Under the pieces are notes generated by a model. That model ran no database searches and had not been told where the DNA came from. It was given only the letters and a program-made list of their open reading frames with translations. The position numbers and the translations under genes were made by a program. Below are positions 2,166 to 58,827 of a stretch of 64,000 nt of DNA, one piece after another. Numbering within the stretch: the first letter of the stretch is position 1; each line of letters begins with the position of its first letter. Where the stretch lies: positions 543,914 to 607,913 of the forward strand of contig CAWFAS010000003.1 in NCBI GenBank assembly GCA_963813895.1, in the 5' to 3' direction. The DNA comes from an uncultured Gammaproteobacteria bacterium (GTDB lineage: Bacteria; Pseudomonadota; Gammaproteobacteria; JAURND01).

Positions 2166-2242
2166 AGCTGGCATAGCTCAGTCGGTAGAGCAACTGATTT
2201 GTAATCAGTAGGTCCCGGGTTCGACTCCTGGTGCCAGCACCA
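2166..2242 (+). tRNA. tRNA-Thr (anticodon UGU)
   Basis: Cloverleaf readable by eye: acceptor GCTGGCA/TGCCAGC, D-arm GCTC-AGTCGGTA-GAGC, anticodon stem ACTGA/TCAGT with loop TTTGTAA (U33, anticodon TGT, A37), T-arm CCGGG/CCTGG with TTCGA, discriminator A, encoded CCA. The T-loop appears one base longer than canonical in my reading, so the count may be off by one. Confidence 0.85.
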
Positions 2243-2248
2243 GTTAAA

Positions 2249-8539: not shown

Positions 8540-10172
8540 AGCGATTTAATTCCGCTTCCCCCTGCTCAAAACCATGATAACTTGCATATTCATGGGTATT
8601 AATATTCAATTTACTCCATTCAGTCAAAAAAAGCGTCATTGCTTTTGGCTCTATATATAAGCGTTTTGCTTTTTGATAAAGACCAGTTAAACGTAAGGCA
8701 TCTAAAAACCACCAAATATCTTGACTAGATGGATAAGCACCAATGGCGTCAGCATTGTTATTGACCACCAAAAAATCAAATCGTATAGCTAAATCCATTA
8801 ATGCTAAGAATGCCTCCAGTGATGAATCATTTTCTTGCAGCCAAGTTTCCATAGCTTGAGTGCTTAATAATTTATGATTAAAACGAAATTTATTAGCATA
8901 ATGTGCGACTTCAATCTGGTCAGGGATCAAGCCAATTTGCGTGGCTTTTAGATCAATTCTATGAAAAAGAGTAGCAATGGTATACATAATATTATATTTA
9001 TCAATATCTGACTGTTTAAATGCGCTACATACGACAGATTTATTTTTTTCAGGAGAATACTGTAAGCCAATGCGTTTTTTGTAGTAGCTATAATAACCTG
9101 ATAATTGCATCAGATAGACCAAGTAATCCATGCTACTTTTTTCATTATCGCTATAATTTAAACAATTAAGTCGTGTGATAAATTGCTTTAGATCTTTATC
9201 AAAACAATCATTTTCCATTTGCCAGCTTTGCTGTGTGACAATATCTCCCAAACCAAATATACCCTCTGATTGATTTCTTTCTCTTTGAGCAATATTGTAG
9301 GTTATCGTCAATAGGTAGGCCAAACGTTGTGTAAGTAGGTAATTTTTTCCAAATAATCGCGCAATCAAAGCGACTTTTTCTTGAATAGGCAACCAATCCT
9401 TATAAACGATAAAAGGCTGGCACTGCATTGATCGTTGTAGAGTACGAAAATAAATAGTGCGCTCAAGATGGGGTTTATTTTGAGATGGAACAACAGCAGT
9501 ATTTGAATTTCTGATTAACTCCAATAATTCGGCTGCATCCAAAGCTTTTTGATCTATGTAACCTCCCTGAGCTAGCCAGGTTATTAAGCGTTTAATCTCT
9601 TCTTCCTTGAATTTATCAATGTTGCTTAAACAAATTTCTTTCAATGTACGTCGTTGATAAAATGTTTGTTTGGTTAGGTAAATTAAGGTATCTACTGTTT
9701 CCTGATTGACAATAGACTGAGCAAGTGCCGACTCCAGTGTCGCTCGTATATTTACCATAGGGTCTGTAATAACTTGGTAACCTGTAGCTTCAGTACCATG
9801 TAATATAGCCACTTCATCATCATCCGTAAGCTTGCCTGACGCATAATCATAAAAAACTTTTCCAACTCCCCGCATACCATAGCGCTCTAATTCCGCAGCT
9901 CTTAATGCACCCATGCTGGAAGCACCGAATACTTTAATACCTTGTTCCAACGCATATAATATTTCTTTATGCCAGACCGCTGCTGTTTTTTCAAACACGC
10001 CATCAATAATTAAGATGACCTCCGGTTTTAATCGCATGACACGCAAAATATCGCCACATTTTACTGGGGGCAAATAAAACGCTTCAGGCAATATCTCTTG
10101 AGCTTTAGTTAATGGTAACGATGGGCCTAGGAAGACGAATATATTGCAGCTAGGAGGATTTTTAGTATTCAC
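8484..10172 (-). CDS. TfuA-like domain protein with ~330-aa C-terminal extension of unknown function
   Basis: N-terminal ~230 aa match the TfuA core (IFVFLGPSLP...CGDILR...LIIDGVFEKTAAVWHKEILYALEQGIKVFGASSMGALRAAEL..YGM.GVG). It is immediately downstream of, and overlaps by 4 nt, a YcaO gene. Confidence 0.75.
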   Translation of the reverse strand: MNTKNPPSCNIFVFLGPSLPLTKAQEILPEAFYLPPVKCGDILRVMRLKPEVILIIDGVFEKTAAVWHKEILYALEQGIKVFGASSMGALRAAELERYGMRGVGKVFYDYASGKLTDDDEVAILHGTEATGYQVITDPMVNIRATLESALAQSIVNQETVDTLIYLTKQTFYQRRTLKEICLSNIDKFKEEEIKRLITWLAQGGYIDQKALDAAELLELIRNSNTAVVPSQNKPHLERTIYFRTLQRSMQCQPFIVYKDWLPIQEKVALIARLFGKNYLLTQRLAYLLTITYNIAQRERNQSEGIFGLGDIVTQQSWQMENDCFDKDLKQFITRLNCLNYSDNEKSSMDYLVYLMQLSGYYSYYKKRIGLQYSPEKNKSVVCSAFKQSDIDKYNIMYTIATLFHRIDLKATQIGLIPDQIEVAHYANKFRFNHKLLSTQAMETWLQENDSSLEAFLALMDLAIRFDFLVVNNNADAIGAYPSSQDIWWFLDALRLTGLYQKAKRLYIEPKAMTLFLTEWSKLNINTHEYASYHGFEQGEAELNRFISMLSEQAENGALQPGK

Positions 10173-11341
10173 ATTCTGGCCCCATTGAACTTTAAACCTG
10201 GAACCAATACTTGCACTACGGGGATGCCAATCTCCTTTTTAGTATGATTTACTAGCAACACATGTCGATAGTCCTTCCTATAGAGTAAGACGATTATTTG
10301 TTTTATATTTTCAGCAAAAGAAGATTGATATTCTGGCTGCACCCCTTTTGCATAGTCATGCATGCCATCTTTGAGCCAGTCTTCCTCCAATAGTTGATTA
10401 AGCATTCTTTGCCGCTGATAGTATTCAGGGAATACATCATCCCGGTTGCCGCTGATTAATGTTAATCTTGCCTGTGCTGCTTCGGTTAATGCCCGAGACA
10501 AGGCAACTTCTTTTGATAAATGAGCCCCAGTTCCTGTGAATAATCCCAAACTTCTAAATAAATTGATGTCGTAGATTGCACAATGAAATGCTGGAATTCC
10601 CAAGGGCGAAGCAATGTCCCAAATTTTTACCCGTAACCCCGCCAGATGCAAGTGCGTCAATAACTGAATGTTACTGTCCTGAATACTCGCCTGCGATAGT
10701 AGTTTTTTATTCTTGATTTCCTGATCCAGTTGTTGCCATTGATAAAGCGAATCACGCTCTATCAATTCATATAATGCATGACAGATCGCTTCTTCATGGG
10801 TATTGCCTGCCGCCAAACCGTTCGTACTGACAGATAAAAAACTATATTCAGGGTGAGGTTGGGTAGAGTCTAAACAGGTAAGAATATGAGGAATATAAAA
10901 ATTAGTATTGGTAGGTAAATCTAAAGCAGACACCCATCCCAACTCCAGAGTATCTAATTTTTTCTGAGTAAATTGAGTCCTATTAAAAAAATCAGGATTT
11001 ATCAGCTTGTGAATATTGCAAAGTGCAGCATAGGAGCCAGCAAGCGCAGGGCCGAGTGCATTTTCCATATGATAGGCTTCTAGTGCCTCCATAATTGCAG
11101 AAATTTCTGCTAACTGTTGGGACAAGCCTTTGCCTTGTGATACTGAAAGATGCTTCGCATTGGGGCGTATGCAGGTAGCAACAGCGATACCGACGGAATC
11201 GAGTCCTGTAATATTGGCTACTCGAGTAATACCCACATTGGGCAAAATTGGCTTTAATCGTTGTAGAGTCTTATCAGTGAAATCGGCACGAATTGTACCT
11301 TGCAGAGGATAATAATTGTCCAAGCACACCACATTAACCAC
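10169..11341 (-). CDS. YcaO-domain protein (ATP-dependent amide-backbone activating enzyme family)
   Basis: Hallmark YcaO motifs GITRVANITGLD..GI.V......RP ... SQGKG and SVSTNGLAAGNTHEEAICHALYELIERD. Confidence 0.85.
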   Translation of the reverse strand: MVNVVCLDNYYPLQGTIRADFTDKTLQRLKPILPNVGITRVANITGLDSVGIAVATCIRPNAKHLSVSQGKGLSQQLAEISAIMEALEAYHMENALGPALAGSYAALCNIHKLINPDFFNRTQFTQKKLDTLELGWVSALDLPTNTNFYIPHILTCLDSTQPHPEYSFLSVSTNGLAAGNTHEEAICHALYELIERDSLYQWQQLDQEIKNKKLLSQASIQDSNIQLLTHLHLAGLRVKIWDIASPLGIPAFHCAIYDINLFRSLGLFTGTGAHLSKEVALSRALTEAAQARLTLISGNRDDVFPEYYQRQRMLNQLLEEDWLKDGMHDYAKGVQPEYQSSFAENIKQIIVLLYRKDYRHVLLVNHTKKEIGIPVVQVLVPGLKFNGARM

Positions 11342-16359: not shown

Positions 16360-18913
16360 ATAGGGTAGGAAGCGAGATTCCCCGAAGGGTAATCCGTCAA
16401 CCCCCCTCCGAACCGGACTTGAACCTTTCAGCTCATCCGGCTCTCCACTTGCTTTTCTTTAGCTCTTCTTAAGTCAGGAAGTTTTCCAGCATGTAACAAA
16501 TCATGACATGAGACACAGAGAACTAATGTTTTCCTTTGTCTTCTTGCCATTATTATTTGCCACAATTTCTTTCCTTCTTTTAAGTCACTCAACTTTCGGA
16601 TGTGATGCACTTCGAATGGTCCCGTTTGTCCCTTACAGTATTCGCACTGACGTGCATTTAATCGTTGAACAAGCTCCGTTCGACTTAAAGTAAATTGCCA
16701 GGTATTAGGCATATCATCGATATGTTTATATGTGGCTTCTTTACGCTTCACATCCTTCAATTTGAATATCTTAAAAATGTGTATATTCGTTTTGCTGCGA
16801 ACAGTTAGCATTAGCCCTTGCGGAGTTTGGAGCCTTTTGGTGATTTTGCCTATCGTAGTTTTGTGCTTGCCTGCTAATGTTTTAAGCAAGCTTGTTTGCC
16901 ATACCCACGCTAGTTTTCCCAAGCTCCAAAAGTTCTGGGCTAACCCATAATAATTAGCTAACCCACGCATTTCCGCGTTATAGGTTTTAATAATCTCTGC
17001 GTCGCTGAGATTGAACAACTCCGCTCGATGAACTGTTTTGAGAGTTGCATAATTTCCGTATTTTTTGTTTTTACAGAATTGACTCAGCTTTTCTTGGGGT
17101 ATATATAATTGCATACGTTCTGCCATAGTTCTTTCGCGCGTATGGCATTTTCCCCTGACAGTCCTAACTGTCTTATTGCCAGAGTAAATAGCTATATTAT
17201 AACCCAAGAATCGTGCACCTTTCGACCCACTTACTATATGAGATTTTTCATGAGCTATTTCGAGCTGTAGATTGATCTCGATAAATTTCTGTATTTTATC
17301 GCGCACAGTAATTGCATCATATTTGGAACCGATAATGCCAATTACAAAATCATCTGCATATCGACAGTAGCGCAATCTCTTATAATTCGGGTCTAACGGT
17401 TCAAGAGTTTTATTTGTTTTCCGTTGTATATCCAGGATTTTTATTTGTTGCTTGAGAGCATGAATCTGCTCAGCAGTGTTTTGCTGTTGATTCAAACTGT
17501 CAATTTTCTTCCGTAATCCATAGATAGAAGCACTGATACGGTCATACTCCGCCTTACTTGCTCTCCTCTTACCTCGGTTAAACTCCGTTTTCAATGTTTC
17601 AACGAATATATCGAGTTCGTGAAGATAAATATTTGCTAGAAGCGGTGAAACAATATTTCCTTGCGGTGTTCCGCTAAATGTTTTGTGGAATTTCCAGTCT
17701 TCGACATATCCGGCTGTTAACATCAGTTCAATAAGGTGAATGAATTTATTATCTTCAATCTTTTCCTTAAGGAGCTTGATGAGGATAGCATGATGGATAT
17801 TATCGAAGTAACCTCTGATATCCATGTCAATGATCCACTTTAGACCGTGCCATCGATTTTTAATTTCATTTAATGCGGTATGACAAGATTTTCCTGGCCT
17901 AAATCCATGGGCATTTTTATGAAAAATTGGCTCATAGATCTTTTCCAGTATCATCCTGACTACTTCAGAAATTAATTTATCGTCTCCAGACGGAATACCT
18001 AATGGACGCTGCTTCCCATTCGCTTTGGGAATATACACTCTTTTTACTGGGTTGAAACGATAATGGTCTTCTTTGATTTCTTTAATCAATCTTTGGACTC
18101 GTTCCATAGAGAATCTGTCCAATGATTTACCATCTGTTCCAGGTGTCGTTGCTCCCTTATTGGCATATATATTTATATATGCCTGCAGCCACAACATCGG
18201 ATTCTCTAAAAGTCTAAAAAGACCATTAATACGTTTTCCTTTCTTAGATAGCTCTCCAAGTGCATCTAATCTCTTAATCGTAGTATCGGTTAGCATCAGC
18301 ACAACCTCTCTTAAGATTTTAGTTGCATAAGCAAGCTGCTTTCCTTCCCCCCAGACAGAGAGTTTTTCATTGATATTACTATCAACTTATGACTGTGTCG
18401 GTATCGCTTACTTTTAGGCGATCAGCCATTTCCATTACAGAAATGACATCGGGTAATACGAAAGCTCTGTTGCCTTATTGGTCGTAGTCTGAATAGACCA
18501 ACTTAGGCAATCCCATGTTTACGACAAACCAAAGTTACAACGTGGTTAGGCCTCCTTTTCGTCTCGACGATCCCTTTTATGAGGGCATGTCTAAACAACT
18601 GGACAATGTAACACGCCCGATAAGTTACCTTGTGTTTAGAACAGATGTTACAGTTATCTTTCATCAGTGCCTGTCAAAAAGCCATGGAGACTGGGATTCA
18701 GGTAGTATAACTTTGACCATACACGTTTTATCCTTACCCCTTCAGCTATAGATAACTTTCAGCATTGGGGCATTTTCCCAACATGCTACACTCCCTCTTC
18801 CCTTTCGGGATTCAAGCCTGTTACCAAGCAGAGATAAGTTGGGTGGATATAAGATTTTCCAGTAATCTTAGCGACTGTTAGTCGCGCTCCTGTTTGACGC
18901 CGACACGGCGCAC
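16360..18913 (-). mobile_element. group II intron (apparently intact), minus strand
   Basis: RT/maturase/endonuclease ORF inside. Domain V (GAGCCGGATGAGCTGAAAGGTTCAAGTCCGGTTC) read as the reverse complement of 16408-16443, overlapping the ORF stop. A GTGCGCC 5' end lies at plus 18913. The 3' end is placed approximately (+/-20 nt) after a domain VI-like hairpin. Confidence 0.75.
16428..18302 (-). CDS. group II intron-encoded protein: reverse transcriptase + maturase (X) + HNH endonuclease
   Basis: RT blocks (RPLGIPSGDDKLISEV, GFRPGKSCHTAL, DIRGYFDNIHH, GTPQGNIVSPLLANIYL, YADDFVIG). C-terminal Cys/His HNH region (CEYCKG...HHIRKLSDL...CVSCHDLLH). Confidence 0.9.
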   Translation of the reverse strand: MLMLTDTTIKRLDALGELSKKGKRINGLFRLLENPMLWLQAYINIYANKGATTPGTDGKSLDRFSMERVQRLIKEIKEDHYRFNPVKRVYIPKANGKQRPLGIPSGDDKLISEVVRMILEKIYEPIFHKNAHGFRPGKSCHTALNEIKNRWHGLKWIIDMDIRGYFDNIHHAILIKLLKEKIEDNKFIHLIELMLTAGYVEDWKFHKTFSGTPQGNIVSPLLANIYLHELDIFVETLKTEFNRGKRRASKAEYDRISASIYGLRKKIDSLNQQQNTAEQIHALKQQIKILDIQRKTNKTLEPLDPNYKRLRYCRYADDFVIGIIGSKYDAITVRDKIQKFIEINLQLEIAHEKSHIVSGSKGARFLGYNIAIYSGNKTVRTVRGKCHTRERTMAERMQLYIPQEKLSQFCKNKKYGNYATLKTVHRAELFNLSDAEIIKTYNAEMRGLANYYGLAQNFWSLGKLAWVWQTSLLKTLAGKHKTTIGKITKRLQTPQGLMLTVRSKTNIHIFKIFKLKDVKRKEATYKHIDDMPNTWQFTLSRTELVQRLNARQCEYCKGQTGPFEVHHIRKLSDLKEGKKLWQIIMARRQRKTLVLCVSCHDLLHAGKLPDLRRAKEKQVESRMS

Positions 18914-24538: not shown

Positions 24539-24770
24539 ATTTGTTTGCTCCGTAGGTGAAATGAGTAAAAATCCTTAGGAAATCAGGGCAAGTTTTGTGG
24601 GGAATAGTCGCTCTTAGTGTCTTTGTAAGTACCGAGTAAGCCAGTTGCATTACTGCAACTGGCTCCTCTAAGAACGCAGCTTGCGACTTTCATCGCACTA
24701 CGCTCAAGCATTTTTTAAGACTGATTTTGTCAGTCCGACCATCTCATCCAGAGGCTCATTAAAACTCCAG

Positions 24771-25517
24771 TTAGCGTTGACCCGTATTTGATCGGACTAG
24801 TTTGCTACGCTTATCGCGGGCTTCAAAATAGTCTTTAAACTTCGGGTTGAATAGACATGCCTCACCGCGAATCTTAATGTAGCGTTCGATCTTCACGCTT
24901 TTAGCTGAGAACAAATCAAGGTGTTTAATTTCTCCTTTCTTGTTCCTGATTTTAGTGGAAAAGATCCAGTTTCTTGTCGACGATATGCGGAAATATTTAG
25001 CACACCATTTTCGCAAACTCCCTTTTGAATGCTTCCGCTTTATCCAGCGCATAATAGCCTGAAAGATGCATCTATCTACATACGAGAAAATTCTTTTAGA
25101 AACCACATGACGATAGTAGTTTGTCCAGCCACGTAAGCGTGCATTCAGCATCGGGATAAACAATTCTCTCGGTGTGTTGCTATGATATTTGATAAATTCT
25201 CGGATACCCTTTAAGAATAAGAGTACGTTTTTCTTGGCTGGTTTTATTAATAATTTCCCGCCATATTTTCGAACGTTAAATCCGAGAAAATCAAAGCCCT
25301 CATCCACGTGCGTGATTTTAGTTTTCTCCGGAGAGAGTTCTAATCCACGTTCTCTGAGAAAGGATTCAATAGCTGGTTTGATTTTATACTCTAGTACTTC
25401 ATATGTGCTTCCGGTCACAATAAAATCGTCAGCATATCGCACAAAATTAATTTTGTCTGGTTGTTTAGTTATTCCTTTTACCAAAGCTTCCATACTATCC
25501 AAAACTATATTCGCCAT
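24771..25517 (-). pseudogene. C-terminal fragment (RT blocks 5-7 + maturase X) of the split group II intron RT
   Basis: Begins ..GGIISPTMANIVLD. Contains YADDFIVTG and the maturase region (RLRGWTNYYR). No endonuclease domain. Confidence 0.8.
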
Positions 25518-25679
25518 GGTTGGGGAAATTATTCCACCTTATGCGAAGAAAGTAATTATGCAAAGTAGTTCTTAAAGTTTCCCATTAATTCAACAACTTC
25601 ATTTCAATTTACTTTGCATAATAGCCTAGAGCGATAATAGAGTCTAGCACTCTAATTATCATTTCTAGGAGATATTTTT

Positions 25680-26915
25680 ATGCAAAATAAACCATTGATT
25701 GATCTGCTCCGTGATTTGGAGCAAGAAATGCTTCGTCTAGGTTACACTGAAGGTTCCATGAAGTTTTATCGTAGACGCTGGCAAATGTTATTAGGATTTG
25801 CACAAGAACGCGATGAACCCTTTTTTTCTGAAAGTTTAGGAATGGATTTTCTCGAAAAGTATTTTCATATTCTTGAAAAAGATTCTAACCGTAAACTTTC
25901 CCAATCAGAAGTTCAAGAACTCCGCATCATACGGGTAATTGGAGACTTTCAACTCCATCATGCCATTTTACGTCGATATTTTAAGCACAAAGAAATTTTA
26001 ACTGAACCCCATTTTTTAACTATCAGTCATCGATTTAAATCCTATTGCGTAGATAATGGCTATTCTGAAGTAACCATTGATCATTATGTTAAACAATCTG
26101 CAAGATTTATGGATTACCTCGCTTCACAGCAAATTATCAGCTGTCAGAAAATTAATCTCGCATTCATTCATAATTATATTAAAACTTTATCTGGTTACGC
26201 CTATAAAACCGTGGAACAAAATATTTGTTCCTTGCGCGCATTTTTTCGTTTCCTTTTAAAAACAGAGGAGGTTGCGATTGATTTTGCAGCAAAAACACCA
26301 ATGGTTCAAGCCAGAAAGCAAACTCGTATTCCATCTGTATGGACAATCGATGAATTGAAAAAATTGATCGCCGCTATTGATAGAGGAAGTCCAAAGGGTA
26401 AACGAGATTATGCCATCATTTTGTTAGCCTGTTGTTTGGGGATGCGATGCCTGGATATTAAACATTTAAAAATGGAAAATTTTAAATGGGAAGAGAAAAA
26501 ATTAATTTTCACTCAATCTAAGACGAAAACCCCTACTGTTCTTCCGTTAACTCCAGAAGTAGGCTGGGCGGTAATTGATTACCTCAAGCACGGTAGACCT
26601 AAAATAGACAGCCCCTTTATTTTTGTCAAGCACATGGCTCCTTTTGGTCCCTTTGCAGAAGACGATCATTTAGCTCAGATCATTAAACATTATATGGAGC
26701 TGGCGCATCTACCTACTTTGAAAAAAAGAAGAGGGATGCATTCCCTTCGACATACGATGGCCAGTCATCTTTTGGAAAAGGACACACCGCTTGCTGTTAT
26801 TTCTGACATTCTCGGTCATATGGATACTGACTCCACGGCAGTTTATTTAAAAGTTGATACGAAGAAACTAAGAGAATGTGCAATGACTTTTGGGGAGGGT
26901 ATTCATCATGAATAA
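25680..26915 (+). CDS. tyrosine recombinase 1 of the RIT trio (RitA position)
   Basis: 411 aa. N-terminal SAM-like domain, catalytic R (MRCLDIKHL region) and HSLRHTMASHLL...LGHMDTDSTAVYLK (H-x-x-R ... Y). Confidence 0.85.
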   Translation: MQNKPLIDLLRDLEQEMLRLGYTEGSMKFYRRRWQMLLGFAQERDEPFFSESLGMDFLEKYFHILEKDSNRKLSQSEVQELRIIRVIGDFQLHHAILRRYFKHKEILTEPHFLTISHRFKSYCVDNGYSEVTIDHYVKQSARFMDYLASQQIISCQKINLAFIHNYIKTLSGYAYKTVEQNICSLRAFFRFLLKTEEVAIDFAAKTPMVQARKQTRIPSVWTIDELKKLIAAIDRGSPKGKRDYAIILLACCLGMRCLDIKHLKMENFKWEEKKLIFTQSKTKTPTVLPLTPEVGWAVIDYLKHGRPKIDSPFIFVKHMAPFGPFAEDDHLAQIIKHYMELAHLPTLKKRRGMHSLRHTMASHLLEKDTPLAVISDILGHMDTDSTAVYLKVDTKKLRECAMTFGEGIHHE

Positions 26916-27894
26916 TTTTAATTATACCGGCCCTTTCAAGGATCATATTCAAAATCATTTAAAATTAAAACAGGCTATTGGATACAAGTATGATACTGAT
27001 GCCGGGCATTTAAAACGTTTCGATCAATTTACATTAGATAAATATCCTCAAGCGACTATTCTGACTAAGGAAATGGTACTTGATTGGTGCAGCAAAAAAA
27101 CTTATGAGGCACAAGCCAACCAAAGCTCGCGTGCTTCTGTCATTCGGCAATTTGGAAAATATCTCGATTCTATCGGAATGAACGCTTATGTCTTAGCCAA
27201 AGGTTATTATCCTAGCGCAAAACAATATATACCGTATATTTATACTATTGAAGAATTGGAAAAATTTTTCTCTGAAACCGACCGATGTCAGTATTGTTGC
27301 GAATGTCCCTATCGGCACCTGATTATGCCTGTGATTTTTCGCATGATCTATCTATGCGGATTGAGATTATCCGAAGCCAGACTGCTTAAAGTTGCAGATG
27401 TTGATCTAAAAGACGGTGTCCTCAGCATCCATCACGCTAAAAAAGATAATTGCCGATTGGTGCCTATGTCCGCCTTTCTAACGGATCTATGTCGAAATTT
27501 CTCAAAAAAAGTGCACCTAAACTCAGCCGAAAGTGATTATTATTTTCCAGCATTGCATGGTAAACCCATGACAAAAACTAATCTTTATCATAACTTCCGC
27601 AGATTTTTATGGCGTGCCAAAATTTCCCATGGCGGCAGAGGACATGGCCCACGCATTTATGACTTTCGACACGTTTATGCCGTGCATTGCTTAAAAAAAT
27701 GGGCTGAAGAAGAAAAAGATCTCACTGTTTACCTGCCTCTGTTAAAAACCTATATGGGACACGACTCATTCAACGAAACTGCCTATTACCTCCGCTTAAC
27801 TGCCGATGTATTCCCTCACATCACGTTAAAAATAGAGACTCAGTATCCAAACATCATCCCCATGCTTGGAGGTGAAACCAATGAAACCCACTGA
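26890..27894 (+). CDS. tyrosine recombinase 2 of the RIT trio (RitB position)
   Basis: 334 aa. GLRLSEARLLKVADVDL..., YDFRHVYAVHCL, MGHDSFNETAYYLR. Overlaps the upstream gene by 26 nt. Confidence 0.85.
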   Translation: MGRVFIMNNFNYTGPFKDHIQNHLKLKQAIGYKYDTDAGHLKRFDQFTLDKYPQATILTKEMVLDWCSKKTYEAQANQSSRASVIRQFGKYLDSIGMNAYVLAKGYYPSAKQYIPYIYTIEELEKFFSETDRCQYCCECPYRHLIMPVIFRMIYLCGLRLSEARLLKVADVDLKDGVLSIHHAKKDNCRLVPMSAFLTDLCRNFSKKVHLNSAESDYYFPALHGKPMTKTNLYHNFRRFLWRAKISHGGRGHGPRIYDFRHVYAVHCLKKWAEEEKDLTVYLPLLKTYMGHDSFNETAYYLRLTADVFPHITLKIETQYPNIIPMLGGETNETH

Positions 27895-28894
27895 TTTTGC
27901 AAAATACCTAACTGAATTTCTTTCCATTTACTTGCCAACGCAGAAAAATGTCAGCAAAAATACTATTCACTCTTATCGAGATACATTTAAATTATTGATT
28001 AATTACTGTCAAGAGATTAAAAAAATTTCGGCAGAAAAAATCACTATTAGTATTCTCTCAAGCCAATGGTTGATTGATTTTTTACAGTGGCTGGAAACAG
28101 ACAGAAAATGTAGCATATCCACTCGAAATCAAAGACTAGCGGCTATTCATTCTTTTTTTAGATATTTACAGGCAGAAGAGCCTGCTGGTATATTTAATTT
28201 TCAAAAGATCACAGCTATCCCCATTAAAAAAGCACAGAAAAAAATTGTGGAATATCTGACTCCAGAAGCTATGAAATTACTTTTGGAGCAGCCCGACAAA
28301 CATACGTTGAGGGGTAGACGTGATTTAACGTTAATGGCGGTCTTATATGATTCTGGAGCACGCGTGCAGGAAGTATGTGATCTGAAGATCGGTGATGTTA
28401 GTTTACAAGAACCCGTTGTTATTACGTTAACTGGCAAAGGAAATAAAATCAGACGGGTACCTATCATGAAAAATACAGCTTCTTTATTAAAAAATTATTT
28501 GTCGGAAAATAACTTAGATAAAACTTGGAAAAATGAAAATCCACTATTCACAAATAACCAACATAGGAAACTGACAAAAGAAGGCGTGTCTTACATAATT
28601 GCAAAGTATGTTGAATCTGCCAGAAAAAAATCAACCATAGTACCTTTAAAAGTACATGCCCATATGCTTCGCCATTCAAAGGCGATGCATTTATTACAAG
28701 CGGGTGTTAATCTCATCTATATCCGTGATTTTCTTGGTCACGTTGACCTGAAGACCACAGAGATATATGCCAGGGCAGATACTGAAACCAAAAGAAAAGC
28801 TGTTGAAAATCTTTATCCTGATTTAATTGAAAGTAATCTGCCTGATTGGAGCAAAGATCAAGCATTGCTTTCGTGGCTGTCTGAGTTAAAATAA
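27866..28894 (+). CDS. tyrosine recombinase 3 of the RIT trio (RitC position)
   Basis: 342 aa. GARVQEVCDLKIGDV, HAHMLRHSKAMHLL, LGHVDLKTTEIYAR. Overlaps the upstream gene by 29 nt. Confidence 0.85.
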   Translation: MEVKPMKPTDFAKYLTEFLSIYLPTQKNVSKNTIHSYRDTFKLLINYCQEIKKISAEKITISILSSQWLIDFLQWLETDRKCSISTRNQRLAAIHSFFRYLQAEEPAGIFNFQKITAIPIKKAQKKIVEYLTPEAMKLLLEQPDKHTLRGRRDLTLMAVLYDSGARVQEVCDLKIGDVSLQEPVVITLTGKGNKIRRVPIMKNTASLLKNYLSENNLDKTWKNENPLFTNNQHRKLTKEGVSYIIAKYVESARKKSTIVPLKVHAHMLRHSKAMHLLQAGVNLIYIRDFLGHVDLKTTEIYARADTETKRKAVENLYPDLIESNLPDWSKDQALLSWLSELK

Positions 28895-28976
28895 ACACCA
28901 TGAGAAATTATGCAAAGTAAATAAAAGTAAAATCATTATTTTTTAATAACCTAAGTAATTTACTTTGCATAATGTC

Positions 28977-29762
28977 CTACTTCGCATAAGGCGGGTTATG
29001 CAAAGCTTTGCATAATCCACCCTGTGGCGTCCCTTCTTCTGTTGGATAAAATGCTTGTTTCTCGATGTAGCCAGATTTCAACCATTTTCGGAGAATTTTT
29101 CTATCTATAAGGATATTATTTTCTAACCATAAATGGTCTATTTTATCGAAGCACGATTTTATATCCCCTTCGAGAATCCACTGGGCAGATGTTCCTTTTG
29201 CAAGGGCATTGAAGCATTGCTCAATGGCGTCAGCACAAGATCTCTTAACCCTAAAACCATATGAGTTTTTATCCGCTTGAGTTTCTGCTACAGGTTCTAA
29301 AGCTAGCAAATGCAATGCTTGCATCGCTCTATCAGCCATCGTAGGGATTCCCAACGGGCGAGTCTGAGTGCTATCATTTTTCTTGGGGATATAAACACGC
29401 CGCAGCGGTTGAGGTTGGTAGCCTCTTTGCTTCAACGCACGTGCTGCTTGCATCTTTTCTTGTGAAGTCTTCCAGATGATACCGTCAACTCCAGCTGTTT
29501 TACTGCCAGAGTTTTCGGCGACTCGTTTTGTCGCTAGTAATTTAGCACAATGCGAGTGAGTTAGGAGATGTTGCAGAGCTTTCGCTTTGCCGCGTTTCCC
29601 TTCTCTAATGGCCTTCGCGATACGCACTTGCAGCCGGTAAACATGCTTGATAACCCTTGACCAATTTATAAAGCCCCAGGTCTTCAAACCTGCCGGAAGG
29701 GCACCCACTGACGATATTGCTGTCGCGGTCATTTGCGTTCTCCCATTATGCCGGTTCTCCAA
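28977..29762 (-). pseudogene. N-terminal fragment (RT blocks 0-4) of the split group II intron RT
   Basis: RPLGIPTMADRAMQ, GFRVKRSCADAI, ILEGDIKSCFDKIDH, ...GTPQGG, then runs into the RIT terminal repeat (LCKALHNPPYAK-stop). Confidence 0.8.
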
Positions 29763-30259
29763 GTTCTCTCACGATAAAACACCAGCTGGATGTGGGCCCG
29801 CTTGCGCGTTGAGTGGTTCAAACCCATATCTCTGTCGTTACAACAGAGCGTTCGCTTTTTCCAGCATCTCAAGCCTGCACTGTTGTAGGCTAGCTTTACA
29901 GTTAGCTTTCCTAAGGAAATCATTAGGGGCAGCACAGGGTTTCCACGTTCCGCTCAAATGAGTATGTCAGGTTAGGTGCCTACTATAGAACGGGAGATTC
30001 GGTGGCCACGAAAGTATATGGAAGAGAAAACTTTCCTATCTCCAGTGCTGATTTTAGCCAAGGCGTGTCAACCACTTTCGCCTTTTTTAAAGTTAACGTT
30101 CTTTGCGTAGATTCACATTACATTCACCATACTGACTTTCTAGCACTCACCCAACTTTGTGGTTGTCAGGAGGGCACGCTTCTTGCGATTTGTGCCCCGT
30201 GCACTAAACTTTGCACTTTGTTACGTTGTCAGGGTCGCTCTTTATTCAGACCCGTAGAA

Positions 30260-30502
30260 TCACCCGGTGGCACGGGTGGTCCCTCGCTCTTTTGAGTGGG
30301 ACAACTTTTTTTGAGCGACTTCGTGTCGCAACTTCCAGTCTTTATCCATCTTTAACAGATATTTAGCAGCCTCCACCAGGAAAAATTCTTTGTCTGCAAC
30401 CCCGGCCCATTGTATGTACTGTTCTATCTCAGCATTCAGGGATTTAGGCAGCTTGGTTCTGACGGCCACTGTTTCCAGATTAACCGGTTTAATTAACGGC
30501 AT
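30260..30502 (-). CDS. small hypothetical protein (possible ribbon-helix-helix type); 3' end overlaps the presumed intron 5' region
   Basis: 80-aa ORF MPLIKPVNLETVAVRTKLPKSLNAEIEQY... No firm homology. Confidence 0.3.
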   Translation of the reverse strand: MPLIKPVNLETVAVRTKLPKSLNAEIEQYIQWAGVADKEFFLVEAAKYLLKMDKDWKLRHEVAQKKLSHSKERGTTRATG

Positions 30503-35209: not shown

Positions 35210-37441
35210 CTAAGCCTCAGCCATTTGAATATTATATCTCTCGCATACATCATATAGTGCTTTAATAGAATATTTTTCTTCAGAATTGAGCTGCAGCCCA
35301 TTAATTATGCCAACATGCCTCATCAGTTGGTGCAGATCAATAATTTTTTTGTCAACAAGTATTGAGTCAATATTTTTTTTCAACCCTGACGTGATACTCT
35401 TGCCATAGAGGGAAATTGCGCAGAGAAACTTTAAAAATCCTTCTCCCGTGCGGATTAAATGATTTATCCATAAATTTTCCCCCTCTAAATCACCGCACTC
35501 AACCCACAATAAAAGAATTAAACCCAAATTTTTTAGCGACTCCAATTTACCGTTGTCCCGAGCTTTATGTATGATTTCTAATCCTAATTTTTGCAACAAT
35601 TCAATGTTTTCTTCTTCAAAGTTAGGATCATTACCGGTAGGACTTTTTATTTTATCTAATTCAGTACCCAACCAATACAAAGGAAGGTACACGCCATTAG
35701 TTTCTTTTAATGATTTCGAAATGCAGGTTAATTTTTTGTTTTTATCTGCTTCCGCTCTTATGATTCTATCAATAATAACGGTAATATATGTTTTTGTAAG
35801 ATCATAGGAGGGTTGAGATTGAGACAAACTATCGCCAAAATCAAACAGAACAATGACAAAATTAGATAAATTTTCCTTTTTAATATCTATAGGTGATTGA
35901 TAAAGTCTATAGATTAGTTTAGTTAAAATGTTATTTTTTTCTAGTACTTCAAAATGTTTCCGCAGTGCCTCAATATCTGCCGAATTAATTATAATTTTTT
36001 CAATTTCTTCTTGAGAAACCTCTCCTTCTGATAGCTGAAGCTGAAAATATCTATCGAAAAAATCAGGATGATATAATCTTAGACTGGATTCACCAATGTA
36101 TGGTTTATTAGTAAGGCGACCCTCAAAATATTTCTTCAAGTTTGGAAATAAATAACGTACAATATCTTTTAAACTCTCGTTTTTAATTATTGAATTAATA
36201 AATTTCCTGTTTTCTTCAAAAAGTTCCGGGCTTGAGGAGAAGTTTTCAATAAAATATTTTTTATATTTATAAATATTTTCGTAAAATTTTGGCTCGTATT
36301 GTCGAATTACCTCTAGTAAAATTAAATCCATAATATTTACTTCCAAGGTATTATTTGTTTTCATCATATTTAGTTGAAATTGAAAAATGGATATAAAGCG
36401 CTTAATATCTCTAAGGTTGTTAAAATATCCATAAAAATTTACCAACAATACTTTTTTCTGATAATAGTCATTCAAGTGAGATAAATTATTGTGAATAATA
36501 ATTTTTTCCATATTTTCATGGAAAAAACTATGAATTGCCTGAATGGATGGCTTTGGTAGCTCAAAAGGAACTTGAATAATTTTTTTTAAATATTCTGAGC
36601 CAGAAATCCCATCTTCATGAAGATGAGCTTCAACGATATCTCGTTGAAAGAAAAGTACATAAATTAAGTTTGGAAAATCTGAGTTTGCTTTAATTATTTG
36701 AAATAATAATTTAGTTTCATTCTTATTGAGCCTATCTATGTCGTCAATCATTGTGACAATAGGATTATCAAGTTCATTAAGTAGCTCAGCAACTTCCTCT
36801 TTTATGGTTTGTAAAGATTTATTTTCTTCAAAACTCAGGCAGTCATGAAGGACATCAAAAAAGTTAGCCAAGTAATCAGATAAACTAACAAATGATAAAA
36901 TAACAACGGGTATTAATAAAAGCCAATGAGAATAACCATTTAATAATTTTAAAAATGGAGTTACTCCAATTGCCCCCAAAATAGTAAAAATCCACTTATT
37001 ACTTTTACCCAATGGACGAAAAATTATAGACGCTATGCGTAAACGAAGAGCATATTTTTTTAGTTTCTTTATTATTTTTTCAATTTTCTTTTTATTTTCT
37101 TTATTCTTGCTAGAATATAATCCAATTTGAACTTGATTAAACAGTTCCTTAGCAATAGCATGTTGTTCTTGCCATTCCCACGGATTAAACTGAACAACTT
37201 TAGCTCTACCTTTCAAACACTCAATTATCATGTTTTTAACCGAGGATTTGCCACTCCCCCACTCACCATACACCCCTATAATCAAATTATCTTTATTTTT
37301 ATATTTAGATATAGTTGTGGCGATATTTTCAGCAAATTTAGCACGATTAAGAAGGTCATCTTTTTTGTTTTCAATGGCTCGGTCATTGAAGAAAGGAGAA
37401 TCTTCAGCATCACTTTTTTCCATTTCAATAGTCCTAATCAA
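35210..37441 (-). CDS. KAP-family P-loop NTPase with membrane-spanning insertion
   Basis: Walker A GVYGEWGSGKSSV near the N-terminus. Two hydrophobic helices inserted after it (IFTILGAIGVTPFL..., LLLIPVVILSFVSL), which is diagnostic of KAP NTPases. Walker B-like IDDIDRL. Confidence 0.8.
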   Translation of the reverse strand: MIRTIEMEKSDAEDSPFFNDRAIENKKDDLLNRAKFAENIATTISKYKNKDNLIIGVYGEWGSGKSSVKNMIIECLKGRAKVVQFNPWEWQEQHAIAKELFNQVQIGLYSSKNKENKKKIEKIIKKLKKYALRLRIASIIFRPLGKSNKWIFTILGAIGVTPFLKLLNGYSHWLLLIPVVILSFVSLSDYLANFFDVLHDCLSFEENKSLQTIKEEVAELLNELDNPIVTMIDDIDRLNKNETKLLFQIIKANSDFPNLIYVLFFQRDIVEAHLHEDGISGSEYLKKIIQVPFELPKPSIQAIHSFFHENMEKIIIHNNLSHLNDYYQKKVLLVNFYGYFNNLRDIKRFISIFQFQLNMMKTNNTLEVNIMDLILLEVIRQYEPKFYENIYKYKKYFIENFSSSPELFEENRKFINSIIKNESLKDIVRYLFPNLKKYFEGRLTNKPYIGESSLRLYHPDFFDRYFQLQLSEGEVSQEEIEKIIINSADIEALRKHFEVLEKNNILTKLIYRLYQSPIDIKKENLSNFVIVLFDFGDSLSQSQPSYDLTKTYITVIIDRIIRAEADKNKKLTCISKSLKETNGVYLPLYWLGTELDKIKSPTGNDPNFEEENIELLQKLGLEIIHKARDNGKLESLKNLGLILLLWVECGDLEGENLWINHLIRTGEGFLKFLCAISLYGKSITSGLKKNIDSILVDKKIIDLHQLMRHVGIINGLQLNSEEKYSIKALYDVCERYNIQMAEA

Positions 37442-38916: not shown

Positions 38917-40122
38917 ATGAAGAATTTTGCGAATAATACTCGAGGCGATAATTCAATCCCTCAACTTAGAAAATCACGGGATGAAATTAATAAATTTCTT
39001 TCGGATCAGATCAGAGAAGGCAAAGAAAATTTTTTGGTGGTTGAAATTGGCAGCTCAGCCCAATTGGATGAAACACAAAGAGAATACAAAAAATGGAAAT
39101 CATCCAACAAAAACTATTTAACTATAGCATTTAGTAATGATCAATTTTCGAACCAATATGATAATACCTATGTTTCAATGGACATTAGAACTTCTAGAAC
39201 TCCTTTTTCAATGGAGGTAAAATATTTTAAAGATGAAGTACAGTCTAATATTGATAAGCTAATAGAAATTTTAGATACACTACCTCTATGTGAAACGACT
39301 CAATTAGAAAGCTCTGAAATACCTGTGAGTAACCAAGATTTCGACAATGTTGTTCTGGGTTATGTTAATAGTCAATCTCCTTCTCCCGTTAGATTCAATA
39401 TGGCAAAAATTGAAAAATTGACGGGGTTAAAAAATAATACAGAAAATGAAGGCGATCTTATACGATTTTTGCAAACTGTAGATTTTCTTGTGGATGAAGG
39501 TTATTTAAGATGTTCTTCTAAGCACATACGTTATGGCATGAACTATGATCTAATCCTGCAACTCGATCAGCTCGTTACTATTACAGAGAAGGGTAAAGAT
39601 AAAATAAAATCTAATCTTACACAACAGAATATCAAAATTCATGACAATAATAAAAAAGTCTTTATAGTGCACGGGCATGATGATACGGCCAAGCTTCAAG
39701 TGGCTTATTTTCTAAAAACAATTGGATTAGAGCCGATTATTTTACACGAACAACCAAACAAGGGTCGTACAATTATTGAAAAGTTGAATGATCATGCGCA
39801 GGAAGTCGCTTTTGCTGTAATATTACTCACGCCTGATGATATTGGTTGTGCTAAAAAAGAGTTTGATGGTGATGTTCAAAAATTGAAGCCACGCGCCAGG
39901 CAAAACGTGGTTTTGGAGCTTGGTCTTTTTATAGGTCTCTTAGGAGGAAAGAACGTTTGTGCTTTAATGAAAGGCGCTATTGAACAGCCTAGCGATTATA
40001 ATGGAGTACTTTATATCAATATGGATGAATCCGATGGATGGCAGATACGACTTATTAAAGAATTAAACGCGGCTAATTTAGATATTGACCATACAGCTCT
40101 TGTTACTTCCGGTAAAAATTGA
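38917..40122 (+). CDS. TIR-like (Cap12/Pycsar-TIR-type, COG4271) C-terminal domain protein with unknown ~230-aa N-terminal domain
   Basis: C-terminal KKVFIVHGHDDTAKLQVAYFLKTIGLEPIILHEQPNKGRTIIEKLNDHAQEVAFAVILLTPDD matches the TIR-like nucleotide-binding-domain signature. Confidence 0.7.
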   Translation: MKNFANNTRGDNSIPQLRKSRDEINKFLSDQIREGKENFLVVEIGSSAQLDETQREYKKWKSSNKNYLTIAFSNDQFSNQYDNTYVSMDIRTSRTPFSMEVKYFKDEVQSNIDKLIEILDTLPLCETTQLESSEIPVSNQDFDNVVLGYVNSQSPSPVRFNMAKIEKLTGLKNNTENEGDLIRFLQTVDFLVDEGYLRCSSKHIRYGMNYDLILQLDQLVTITEKGKDKIKSNLTQQNIKIHDNNKKVFIVHGHDDTAKLQVAYFLKTIGLEPIILHEQPNKGRTIIEKLNDHAQEVAFAVILLTPDDIGCAKKEFDGDVQKLKPRARQNVVLELGLFIGLLGGKNVCALMKGAIEQPSDYNGVLYINMDESDGWQIRLIKELNAANLDIDHTALVTSGKN

Positions 40123-44427: not shown

Positions 44428-45552
44428 CTATAGCGGGATGTCGGTTGCGAAGCTGGATTGTAGAGGGAGTGATTTTGCTTGTGGTGGTAAATAGCTAACG
44501 TCCAAAATAATTCCTTCGATTACGAGGCGTTTTTCAAAACGGGCTGAACGATAGCGGTGAATTGTGTTAGTATTTTTTTTGATCAAATAACTATCGAGCA
44601 GTTGCAGTAAATTATCTTGTGGTGCGTATTGGGGATAAAGTTGGAGAAATTCTGCAATACGCTTTATGCCTATGAACAAACCGGCGGGGATGCGTAACAA
44701 TAGAGTATTTTCCACATTAAAATCCGTTGCAGTACATTGGTGATCTATCCATTCATTCAAAATATTTAGGAGCTGCGAAGGATTAGTTTTTTCCTCTTGT
44801 TCATCAGTGGTTGCATGGGGGCTCTGATGCTTTTGTATTATTGGATTGGCATCGTCTGGAGGATCTGTGTCCAAAGGGTAATTAATTTTTTCAGCAGCCT
44901 CACGGATAATTTCTGTCAAAACAGTAGGTGCTGTCGGATTTTCTACTAAAGTTGTCCACCAGACTTGAAAGGCAGTGGGGCAACCAGTTAGCCAACGCAA
45001 TGCAATTGATGGGACTATCCGACCAATGAGGGCAGCGCGGAATACCCATTCGTTGACGATGACGGGGTGAGATTTATTTTCAAGAGAATAAAATGTCGCT
45101 GCTTCGTATAAATTGCCGGCTAATGGATGCCAAAGACCCAATTTATTGCCGCCATTTTTAAATAGCGTGATAGTGCGATCGTGTTGTAGGTGATTTATTT
45201 GCGTGAATAGGCAAGCGGTAAATAATGCGTAGGTCCACAAGGGCTCTTGTTCGGCAATAGTTTCACTTTCTGATTGTAGGGGTAACATTTTGCCCCGCCG
45301 CAATTTTAATGCTGTGATTGCTAAATCCAGTTGCCGCTGTAAGAGGCTATAGGGTTTTGATTGATGATCAAATGACATCGCTTGGCAAAACGCCATAAAG
45401 CGATTTAGGGTTGTGAGATATAATTCCTGATAAATATCGAGCGGTGCACTGACGAGCTGTTTTAACTGAATAAGATGGGGCTGTAATGCTGGGAGCCTGG
45501 CAATTTCTTCCCCAGTCAGGCAGGGCAATAATTCATTGGACTGTTTTTCCAT
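44428..45552 (-). CDS. hypothetical ICE core protein (374 aa)
   Basis: ORF immediately upstream of, and co-directional with, traD. Confidence 0.5.
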   Translation of the reverse strand: MEKQSNELLPCLTGEEIARLPALQPHLIQLKQLVSAPLDIYQELYLTTLNRFMAFCQAMSFDHQSKPYSLLQRQLDLAITALKLRRGKMLPLQSESETIAEQEPLWTYALFTACLFTQINHLQHDRTITLFKNGGNKLGLWHPLAGNLYEAATFYSLENKSHPVIVNEWVFRAALIGRIVPSIALRWLTGCPTAFQVWWTTLVENPTAPTVLTEIIREAAEKINYPLDTDPPDDANPIIQKHQSPHATTDEQEEKTNPSQLLNILNEWIDHQCTATDFNVENTLLLRIPAGLFIGIKRIAEFLQLYPQYAPQDNLLQLLDSYLIKKNTNTIHRYRSARFEKRLVIEGIILDVSYLPPQAKSLPLQSSFATDIPL

Positions 45553-45573
45553 GGTGCTGCTCCGAATAATGGG

Positions 45574-47604: not shown

Positions 47605-47972
47605 TAGTGTCCCTCTAACAGGTGCAGGAGTATTAAAAACAGGTTTTCACAGACGACTAACTCAAATATAATCAGCCAGAGCGTGATTTTTATTCGTTGC
47701 TTTAACCAAAACATGGTTTTTTCAGGTTTCCAATAATGATTTTTAGCCCACCAGCGTATAAAGTGAGGCCAGGCACAAAATAGGACTATTATTATCAGCC
47801 AGCGCATGGCGGTGAAAAATAATTTATTTTGTGAAATAATTCGACTCACGCTCTGCAAGTGGTTGGGGTGAGCGAAATTAAGCCAGACAAATGGCGTCAT
47901 GATAAGAAGCATGAATGCAAGCCATAGTATCAGCTGCAGAAAGGTTTTTTTTAAATGTTTTAATAAAAGCAT
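47604..47972 (-). CDS. small polytopic membrane protein
   Basis: 122 aa, 3-4 hydrophobic helices. Stop overlaps the traD start (ATGA). Confidence 0.45.
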   Translation of the reverse strand: MLLLKHLKKTFLQLILWLAFMLLIMTPFVWLNFAHPNHLQSVSRIISQNKLFFTAMRWLIIIVLFCAWPHFIRWWAKNHYWKPEKTMFWLKQRIKITLWLIIFELVVCENLFLILLHLLEGH

Positions 47973-48196
47973 TTTTTCCTCAAAAAGGATTTAGTTATGA
48001 AAAATAAAGTTATTAGAAAAAATCGTTCACCGGCTTTAAAAGCCGTACTATTTTTAATAAAAATCCCATTACTTATCCTCGGAGCAACTGCTACAGCTCA
48101 TTCAGATGAAGAAGAGCAATCAAATGTAGTAGAGGATTTATATTCACAAAAACCAAGTCTTTTTGATCCTCGATCTCCTAAACATTGAGTGAAATT

Positions 48197-57448: not shown

Positions 57449-57458
57449 TTGCTATCTC

Positions 57459-58809: not shown

Positions 58810-58827
58810 ATTTTTCTCCTGTAAAAA

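Follow-up and report, generated by a model that had tools for sequence, protein, structure and literature searches.

A RIT element in the reverse transcriptase gene of a group II intron belongs to a lineage that recurrently occupies the same Q|GG codons

The DNA analyzed here is a 64-kb stretch from an uncultured Gammaproteobacteria bacterium (the window; contig CAWFAS010000003.1, positions 543,914 to 607,913), and it carries a three-level nesting of mobile DNA in which a recombinase-in-trio (RIT) element lies within the reverse transcriptase (RT) gene of a group II intron, itself located in an island that resembles an integrative conjugative element (ICE). The insertion in the window is no accident: the lineage to which this RIT belongs is specific for Q|GG codons in RT genes (the bar marks the junction). 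This nesting had been put forward in an original prediction made from the letters alone, and the Pfam and Rfam matches together with the reconstruction of the split gene agree with it. What the prediction missed was the targeting of the RT codons, a third hexamer inside the element and a palindrome, and it is the internal hexamer and the palindrome that reveal the recombination site.

The host intron is identified by both its RNA and its protein, with RF02012 and RF00029 matches in the RNA and RVT_N, RVT_1 and GIIM domains in the reconstructed RT. Two minus-strand open reading frames, at 28977-29762 and 24771-25517, are the halves of a single group II intron RT: the N-terminal half (RT-N) matches Pfam RVT_N and RVT_1 profile positions 1-123, and the C-terminal half (RT-C) matches RVT_1 profile positions 131-205 and the GIIM maturase domain. 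Deleting the insert and one hexamer rejoins the frame exactly, as had been predicted, and yields one 504-codon frame (...EEGTPQGG|IISPTMANIVLD). Alignment of the reconstructed RT to 40 full-length homologues (59-73% identity), which had been proposed as a check, is gap-free within 19 columns of the junction and indicates no additional deletion. The parts of the intron are as follows.

24631-24707, minus strand: group II intron domain V/VI RNA, the 3' end of the intron (Rfam RF00029, 50.6 bits).
24771-25532, minus strand: C-terminal half of the intron RT, with RT blocks 5-7 and maturase/X, starting IISPTMANIVLD (RVT_1 131-205, GIIM and reconstruction).
29022-29762, minus strand: N-terminal half of the intron RT, with RVT_N and RT blocks 0-4, ending ...EEGTPQ (Pfam and reconstruction).
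30143-30279, minus strand: group II intron domains I-IV RNA, the 5' part of the intron (Rfam RF02012, 68.9 bits).

The insert itself spans 25539-29015 (3477 bp) and has TCCACC on each flank, at 25533-25538 and 29016-29021; its left limit is the one originally predicted, while the right limit had been placed one base short, at 29014. Within it are three adjacent genes on the same strand, in keeping with the predicted three overlapping tyrosine-recombinase genes, and each of them matches Phage_integrase.

25680-26915, plus strand: ritA, 411 aa, Xer-like tyrosine recombinase whose N-terminus is extended by about 115 residues (Pfam and NCBIfam matches).
26908-27894, plus strand: ritB, 328 aa, tyrosine recombinase, with an 8-bp overlap with ritA (Phage_integrase).
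27881-28894, plus strand: ritC, 337 aa, tyrosine recombinase, with a 14-bp overlap with ritB (Phage_integrase).

The larger of the two overlaps exceeds the 4-8 bp reported for RITs. In RitA a SAM-like domain at residues 118-196 follows the N-terminal extension, an arrangement consistent with two core-binding domains (PMC8138268). By eye, the translated RitA, RitB and RitC show putative catalytic residues in the pattern R...(H/Y)xxR...H...Y, with Tyr replacing the first His in RitB. No RIT-specific model exists in NCBIfam, where the best scores of all three proteins are sub-threshold matches to the XerC, XerD and XerA models that fall well under the Xer family cut-offs, and no RIT protein structure exists in the PDB, the nearest solved structures being those of Xer proteins. 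Homology to pHG1, a plasmid named as RIT-rich (PMC3414803), was assessed with RitA, which matches at six places; the best match (36% identity over 97% of the length, E 2e-60) is to the gene that opens an annotated integrase trio, whose overlaps are the same. Among open reading frames of at least 100 aa the element holds only the three recombinase genes, with no counterpart of Srap/TnpC or Tfp, and a scan for promoters and terminators within it returned background level only. On the evidence of the trio, its overlaps, the size, the inverted repeat with palindrome, the existence of copies and the pHG1 homology, the insert is a member of the known RIT class, and it is intact and probably active.

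The motif TTATGCRAAG occurs eight times in the window, always at the insert ends (0.69 expected; 0 of 100 shuffles reached eight), which bears out the imperfect terminal inverted repeats of TTATGC(A/G)AAG units that had been described. Computed inverted repeats pair 25534-25567 with 28961-28994 (34 nt, 85%) and 25598-25622 with 28907-28931 (25 nt, 84%), and the symmetrical inverted repeats, about 84 bp each with three copies of the 10-mer apiece, occupy 25539-25622 and 28907-28989. They delimit a 3451-bp body, E (25539-28989), which has ritABC inside and inverted 10-bp arms A (TTATGCGAAG) at both ends. Outside the symmetrical repeat, the right end has 26 bp extra, consisting of GGCGGG at 28990-28995 and a perfect 20-bp palindrome, P, at 28996-29015 (TTATGCAAAGCTTTGCATAA) that is formed by two B arms back to back (TTATGCAAAG|CTTTGCATAA). 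In the RT sense the locus therefore reads RT-N...CAG-GGTGGA (s1)-P-CCCGCC (s2)-E-GGTGGA (s3)-ATAATT...RT-C, and its three junctions share a half-site/hexamer/half-site layout: J1 is RT-N-s1-B, J2 is B'-s2-A and J3 is A'-s3-RT-C. The internal unit, A' (CTTCGCATAA)-GGCGGG-B (TTATGCAAAG), places inverted 10-bp arms around a 6-bp spacer, is the sole such arrangement within the window, and looks like the core site of a tyrosine recombinase, as in dif or lox.

25533-25538, minus strand: hexamer s3, GGTGGA in the RT sense (Gly-Gly codons), between arm A and RT-C (sequence); probably the native target hexamer, by analogy with the family of loci L012 and L015 described below.
25539-28989, plus strand: RIT body E, with arms A at 25539-25548 and, as the complement, at 28980-28989; the 99.9-100% identical copies at loci L001-L004 start and stop here.
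25539-25622, plus strand: left inverted repeat, with the 10-mer at 25539 (forward), 25556 (forward) and 25612 (reverse).
28907-28989, plus strand: right inverted repeat, with the 10-mer at 28908 (forward), 28963 (reverse) and 28980 (reverse).
28990-28995, plus strand: internal spacer s2, GGCGGG, resembling Gly-Gly codons and equal to the target hexamer of the L001 host intron.
28996-29015, no strand: palindrome P, two B arms (sequence), carried by at least 120 metagenome contigs.
29016-29021, minus strand: hexamer s1, GGTGGA in the RT sense, between RT-N and P (sequence).

A degenerate ninth 10-mer (TTATGCAAAA) lies at 25678-25687, over the ritA start codon, and this arrangement recurs in the 82% identical elements of L005-L007; it is possibly a site of autoregulation.

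RITs that are 73-100% identical in DNA to that of the window occupy the same Q|GG codons of RT genes, and their hosts include Bacillota, Proteobacteria and metagenomes. Closest are four places in metagenome ERZ25039590 (L001-L004) that encode an identical RitA protein within element DNA 99.9-100% identical to the window. L001-L003 have the element at Q|GG of an RT gene whose intron (VISPLLSNLY) differs from that of the window, and L004 is a contig holding the element body only, equal to window positions 25539-28992. More distant copies are joined to RT sequence at the same position, namely an 82% identical RIT joined to RT halves in the metagenome-assembled genome (MAG) MFD10064 (L005-L007) and a full-length, 73% identical RIT on a plasmid of Bacillus sp. 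S3 (L009). The search of genome contigs with RitA returned four loci only, and exact-protein look-ups yielded more. RitA relatives at 75-87% identity are very numerous in assemblies of Bacillota, Alphaproteobacteria, Brocadiales and Chlamydiales. Robertmurraya sp. FSL R5-0851 (GCA_038002965.1) has six places that all encode one identical RitA, and in Oceanobacillus, Robertmurraya and Alphaproteobacteria MAGs most places have RVT_1/GIIM genes beside the trio and junctions that read Q|G(G/S). The ends are thus conserved in other RIT elements, which answers a second check that had been proposed for them.

JGI metagenomes, scanned without bias for the 20-bp P, gave at least 120 contigs; the counts of P junctions here and below refer to those P contigs that were listed. 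Thirty-two of 90 P-E junctions adjoin ...PQG(G/S). At least 55 distinct RT-N junction sequences and at least 25 distinct RT-C ones were collected, with the consensus GGnACnCCnCAR|GGnGGn|nTnnTnTCnCCn, and the codon boundary is identical in all 55 distinct RT-N junctions. At least five Rfam D1-D4 families (2, 3/1, 5, 6 and 7) are represented among the host introns, and some of the host RTs have a C-terminal HNH-like motif while others lack it. One copy is not inside an RT gene: at L022 (ERZ25039497 contig_41536) a RIT with 87% RitA identity sits beside a Y1_Tnp gene, yet its flanks (ACCCAA GGTTCG ... GGAATG AATTTATCCCCT) imitate the RT target consensus, and this mimicry by a non-RT site suggests that the target is recognized at the DNA level.

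Two other interpretations were set aside. The RVT_1 genes of about 375 aa beside the Robertmurraya RITs were considered as non-intron RTs; reconstruction gives proteins of 600-620 aa with RVT_1, which have a CHHK...H HNH-like motif at the C-terminus (by eye) and intron RNA on their flanks. Dozens of metagenome contigs with RitA relatives are 3449-3482 bp long, approximately the length of the element body, and many stop exactly at the boundaries of E. Such contigs of about 3450-3480 bp were considered as circles; their lengths and ends fit repeat-collapsed linear contigs, which end at the element edges because assemblers break where the hexamers diverge, and they provide no evidence for circles. 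Separately, two copies of the MAG MFD10064 RIT, in L006 (near 9290) and L007 (near 9280), have a right inverted repeat that is interrupted at an identical base, following TTTACTT, by a sequence beginning GTAACAT...GGGCACTTAGCCCTGTAAGGCAG, which has no Rfam family match there in L007. The window also holds a second group II intron of a different type (16360-18302, minus strand; domain V at 16360-16445) with an intact 624-aa RT carrying an HNH domain. That RT has Q-G-N (GGAAAT) at the RIT target position and is unoccupied, a single case that proves nothing.

The arrangement of the parts around the target follows rules. P adjoins RT-N with E beyond it in 32 of 32 metagenome junctions and at every genome locus, and no case of P adjoining RT-C with E on the other side was seen among the listed P contigs. 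The body is found in both orientations: it is the RitA end that adjoins P 22 times and the RitC end 16 times. Each of the three hexamers is GGNGGN-like (or GGNTCN-like) and resembles Gly-Gly or Gly-Ser codons; they differ mainly at codon third positions and are shuffled between copies, as the order s1, reverse complement of s2, s3 makes plain.

Window: GGTGGA, GGCGGG, GGTGGA.
L001: GGCGGG, GGTGGA, GGCGGG.
L002: GGTGGA, GGTGGA, GGCGGG.
L013: GGAGGA, GGTGGA, GGGGGA.
L017: GGGGGA, GGTGGT, GGAGGA.
L026: GGAGGA, GGCGGC, GGCGGG.

The flanking hexamers are equal in the window, L001, L010 and L016, whereas they are unequal in L002/3, L012, L013, L015, L017, L026 and L057. Because they differ in sister copies, the repeat is not a duplication generated by repair, and the hexamer is therefore the overlap region of a conservative site-specific recombination rather than a transposase-type duplication. 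Of the earlier proposal for this hexamer, a crossover or target sequence stands and a true target-site duplication does not. The element likewise departs from a DDE-type insertion sequence in having no DDE transposase.

The hexamers also appear to preserve a history. The internal spacer of the window, GGCGGG, is the flanking hexamer of L001, and the internal spacer of L001, GGTGGA, is the flanking hexamer of the window; evidently the same element moved between two intron types and kept a record, and the s2 of the window may be read as the trace of a previous site of insertion. The hexamers that Robertmurraya has on the P side and internally (GGTGGA, GGAGGA, GGGGGA and GGTGGT) are, one exception aside, the RT-C-side hexamers of other occupied introns in that genome. 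In each of three intron families that are occupied several times, s1 varies between the copies and s3 stays the same. The L015 intron has a second copy, L012, and the two share GGTGGA as s3 with GGTGGT and GGAGGA as s1. The prediction that s3 is the native hexamer held in this family, as an intact metagenome intron with an RT 96% identical to the one reconstructed for the L015 host (442 aa, as in nearly all intact homologues listed) reads ...ACGCAA GGTGGA GTAATATCTCCG.... Where it is checkable, then, the RT-C-side hexamer is native and the P-side hexamers are imported.

We consider it probable that these patterns arise by a site-specific exchange of overlaps, that is, by conservative tyrosine-recombinase integration into RT block 4 of group II introns. 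The target is the pair of codons that follows Gln in that block's conserved motif, G-T-P-Q-G-G-x-x-S-P, and the recombinases would exchange half-sites across the hexamer. Excision by recombination of J1 with J3 would produce a circle in which A'-s-B lies beside the internal B'-s2-A, giving a head-to-head pair of identical sites with P between them. Use of either circle site for integration would account for both orientations of E while P stays beside RT-N, orientation being set by the asymmetric GGNGGN overlap, and the spacer of the unused site would survive as s2, a memory of the earlier target. Tolerance of heterology at hexamer positions 3 and 6 would mean that the flanking hexamers need not match, and one of the three recombinases may handle target recognition. 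Both the circular intermediate and the roles of the three Rit proteins are inferred. A motif common to all group II introns could serve as a harmless landing site that is carried on plasmids and ICEs, and a landing site that travels in this way would explain RitA identities of 75-87% across phyla.

Rearranged loci are consistent with such exchanges. Recombination of the internal site with J3 of another copy predicts two reciprocal products, and both types were found: E between two inverted RT-C halves without P (L005 and L009, the halves in L009 coming from two different introns), and E with P plus an inverted RT-N half on either side (L018, L019, L116 and L124). Rarer forms also fit the half-site exchange model. 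In L074 and L112 the arrangement is RT-N-P-RT-N, and in L075, L132 and L136 a solo P with two hexamers lies within an RT gene without recombinase genes, as a 26-bp insert that shifts the frame; a solo P is a possible footprint of a lost element body. Two of the three solo-P loci have the palindromic hexamer GGCGCC, which would remove orientation control. L103 (1213-7277) holds a head-to-tail pair of different RITs from one family that share a single P, have only GGTGGT-P-ACCACC between them and are bordered at the outer left by the C-terminal half of an RT; this junction is that predicted for a circle or for a RIT inserted in the site of another RIT.

Several observations weigh against the proposed exchange. 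A protein search found no intact copy of the window's own intron above 73% RT protein identity, and the empty site is reconstructed only at the protein level. No same-strain circular junction, empty site or excision product was seen among the integrated copies, and in a mobilome study of other RITs coverage was raised and circular junctions were not detected by read mapping (PMC5737581). A simple two-strand exchange with random segregation predicts that the native hexamer would be at RT-C and the imported one at P in about half of the cases, unlike the one-sided pattern observed, and the target arms resemble A' and B only weakly, so that the model leaves target recognition unexplained. Part of the evidence, moreover, comes from metagenome assemblies in which repeats may be mis-joined; the same patterns are also present in the isolate genomes of Robertmurraya and Oceanobacillus and on the Bacillus sp. 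S3 plasmid.

The one-sidedness of the hexamers would be accommodated by a copy-out or strand-biased route, as in SEs (integrative elements that circularize with a strand bias) and Tn554, in place of cut-out and paste-in. One strand pair would be exchanged, replication would resolve the product, the donor would keep its copy and 6 bp would travel with one end, and the native hexamer on the RT-C side with the imported one on the P side indeed matches the 6-bp carry-over of SEs and Tn554 (PMC10214605). The many identical copies per genome point the same way, as does the protein search for the L012/L015 intron, which found no intact version from the Robertmurraya assembly and gave a 96% identical metagenome protein as the closest. 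Yet the fourth, accessory gene (the counterpart of Srap/TnpC or Tfp) is absent from the 3.5-kb element, and the P hexamers change between copies of an identical element, which requires some exchange of the whole overlap. As the sites and the target would be the same and only the order of strand exchange would differ, we regard this variant as unlikely but as a live alternative. A linear, hairpin-ended intermediate, with P as a replicated hairpin telomere made by a resolvase-like Rit activity, seems scarcely credible. It draws on the perfect palindrome, on the inverted hexamers present on both sides of P in 15 of 32 RT-lineage junctions, and on the exonuclease-protected hairpin forms that the mobilome study proposed for RITs (PMC5737581), but P is at one end only of a single-copy insertion, half of the copies have hexamers around it that are not inverted versions of one another, the Rit proteins are Xer-like and unlike telomere resolvases, and ordinary half-site exchange fully explains the observed rearrangement products.

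Ordinary transposition, in which a 6-bp staggered cut is repaired to duplicate TCCACC and the RT location reflects chance or a weak preference, would account for the four loci with equal flanks. We judge it highly improbable, since the element encodes tyrosine recombinases only, to which staggered-cut repair is foreign by established enzymology, and since the cases of unequal flanks, the third GGNGGN-like hexamer inside the element and the 55 distinct RT-N junctions at one codon boundary all speak against it. It is also very unlikely that a RIT without any RT specificity was inserted a single time long ago and that the composite intron then spread through retrohoming on RT provided in trans and through horizontal transfer. 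Introns are multicopy retroelements, and L002 and L003, whose flanks are identical, could be copies of one such composite. The hosts, however, span at least five structural families of intron with unrelated RT sequences, with and without HNH; both orientations of E are seen; within one genome, the hexamers of different intron families are mixed; the RIT is 99.9% identical in two different introns, that of the window and that of L001; and even the non-RT pseudo-site that mimics the target is occupied (L022).

Among the listed P contigs, P is common to RIT lineages with other arms and other targets. In L030, L064, L065, L100 and L113 a RIT lineage with P has the arm TTATGCTGAG/TTATGCGGAG and lies in IS91-family Y2 transposase genes, where the lineage with arm TTATGCTGAG inserts exactly after the RYYG codons (hexamer TACGGN) and the Pfam Y2_Tnp match ends at profile position 174 of 183. 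Two further lineages with P are a TGGCCG-site lineage with the arm TTATGTGAAG/TTATGACAAG (L041, L049, L056, L089, L097, L098, L101 and L140) and a GGCTTN-site lineage with the arm TAATGAAAAG (L029, L035, L066, L067, L084, L106 and L133). It is an evenly balanced proposition that the RIT class as a whole consists of parasites of other mobile elements, which would keep P, have arms of their own in each lineage, use a dif-like site of the arm-6 bp-arm type to enter a conserved pair of codons in a key enzyme of the other element, and leave a readable history of their hops in the 6-bp overlaps. If true, the long-missing attachment sites and the mechanism would be defined for a transposon class found across bacterial phyla.

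For the lineage studied here, the analysis pins the target down to the Gly-Gly codons of RT block 4, gives a core-type site whose overlap is 6 bp, and adds rules of orientation and natural recombination products that agree with a single simple model; the defined site, target and hexamer memory make the RIT mechanism testable. The picture is of one selfish element specialized in disabling the enzyme of another, the group II intron RT, and it suggests how a 3.5-kb element without transfer genes stays 75-87% identical across phyla. A set of recombinases with a short, defined and programmable-looking site may also interest genome engineers.

The larger setting of the intron is as follows, with the conjugation genes defined by Pfam matches.

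2167-3424, no strand assigned to the pair: tRNA gene at 2167-2239 (plus strand; Rfam tRNA, 74.8 bits), then tyrosine integrase gene at 2249-3424 (minus strand; Phage_integrase Pfam).
44428-60163, minus strand: conjugation module with a TraI_2 relaxase, a TrwB/TraD-type coupling protein, TraG_N, TraU, TraC, DUF3438 and DUF4400.

The tRNA and integrase genes are likely the left boundary of the ICE-like island, the intron sits between them and the conjugation module, and the right end of the island is outside the window; with an integrase and tRNA at the likely left end and conjugation genes in the window, it is reasonable to describe the intron as ICE cargo. Other genes in this region include one for a KAP-family P-loop NTPase (35210-37441) and one with a CAP12/Pycsar-type TIR effector domain (38917-40122), which are probable anti-phage defence cargo of the island, and an adjacent pair of YcaO cyclodehydratase and TfuA-like genes lies within the island at 8484-11341 (minus strand).

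Described in 2009, RIT elements occur commonly in bacterial genomes. Their transposition has never been reproduced experimentally and their target specificity is untested (PMC10214605), their ends vary in sequence, and their repeats do not fit the usual layouts of binding sites; the insertion sites known for them are the gene of a Tn6049-like transposase and the radC gene of an ICE (PMC3414803). Full-text searches whose coverage did not extend to the main survey, Ricker et al. 2013 (Plasmid 70:226), turned up no paper in which RITs are connected with RT genes or group II introns, and RT targeting may already have been described in that survey. With that proviso, the defined recombination site, the RT-gene target specificity and the hexamer memory appear to be new.

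The closest relatives are the RITs of Cupriavidus metallidurans CH34, C. necator pHG1 and others (Van Houdt 2009/2012; Ricker 2013), which have the same overlapping A-B-C trio on one strand, a size of about 3.5 kb, a terminal inverted repeat with a palindrome beside one end, identical copies per genome and a location in other mobile elements. In contrast to them, the element described here has defined ends, a core-type site, a 6-bp overlap and an RT Q|GG target. The pHG1 RIT (L143, NC_005241.1 51290-51330) has a different, 32-bp perfect palindrome (TAGCGCAAATGTGCTG|CAGCACATTTGCGCTA) upstream of ritA, the outer half of which is repeated inverted at the far end of that element, and a palindrome at one end seems to be general for RITs, its sequence differing. 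Transposons of the SE and Tn554 type are alike in being site-specific tyrosine-recombinase elements with no true target duplication and with a 6-bp donor carry-over at one junction (PMC10214605), but they need an extra, non-recombinase protein (TnpC/Srap or Tfp/GinC), carry cargo and have no terminal palindrome. Their recombinases also fall in different protein subgroups (PMC8138268), the RIT having three Xer-like recombinases only. As it lacks the accessory protein, the element is not a member of this group, though by analogy with the 6-bp carry-over it may work alike.

Xer/dif and the integrative mobile elements exploiting Xer (IMEX) share with the RIT the Xer-like recombinases and the two inverted arms of about 10-11 bp around a 6-bp centre; the RIT differs in bringing its own three enzymes and in targeting a protein-coding motif instead of dif. 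Tn916 and CTnDOT similarly use an integrase that exchanges strands over a 6-7 bp overlap and tolerates heterology, such that the flanks differ and move with the element, but they are large conjugative elements with Int and Xis and AT-rich, loosely specific targets. The use of a conserved sequence as a safe and widely available landing site is familiar from Tn7 at glmS, R2 in 28S rDNA, the res hunters of the Tn5053 type, and IS110/IS1111 in REP sequences. Unlike Tn7, R2, the Tn5053-type elements and IS110/IS1111, the RIT has as its target a pair of catalytic-core codons in a gene of another selfish element, whose RT is inactivated by the insertion.

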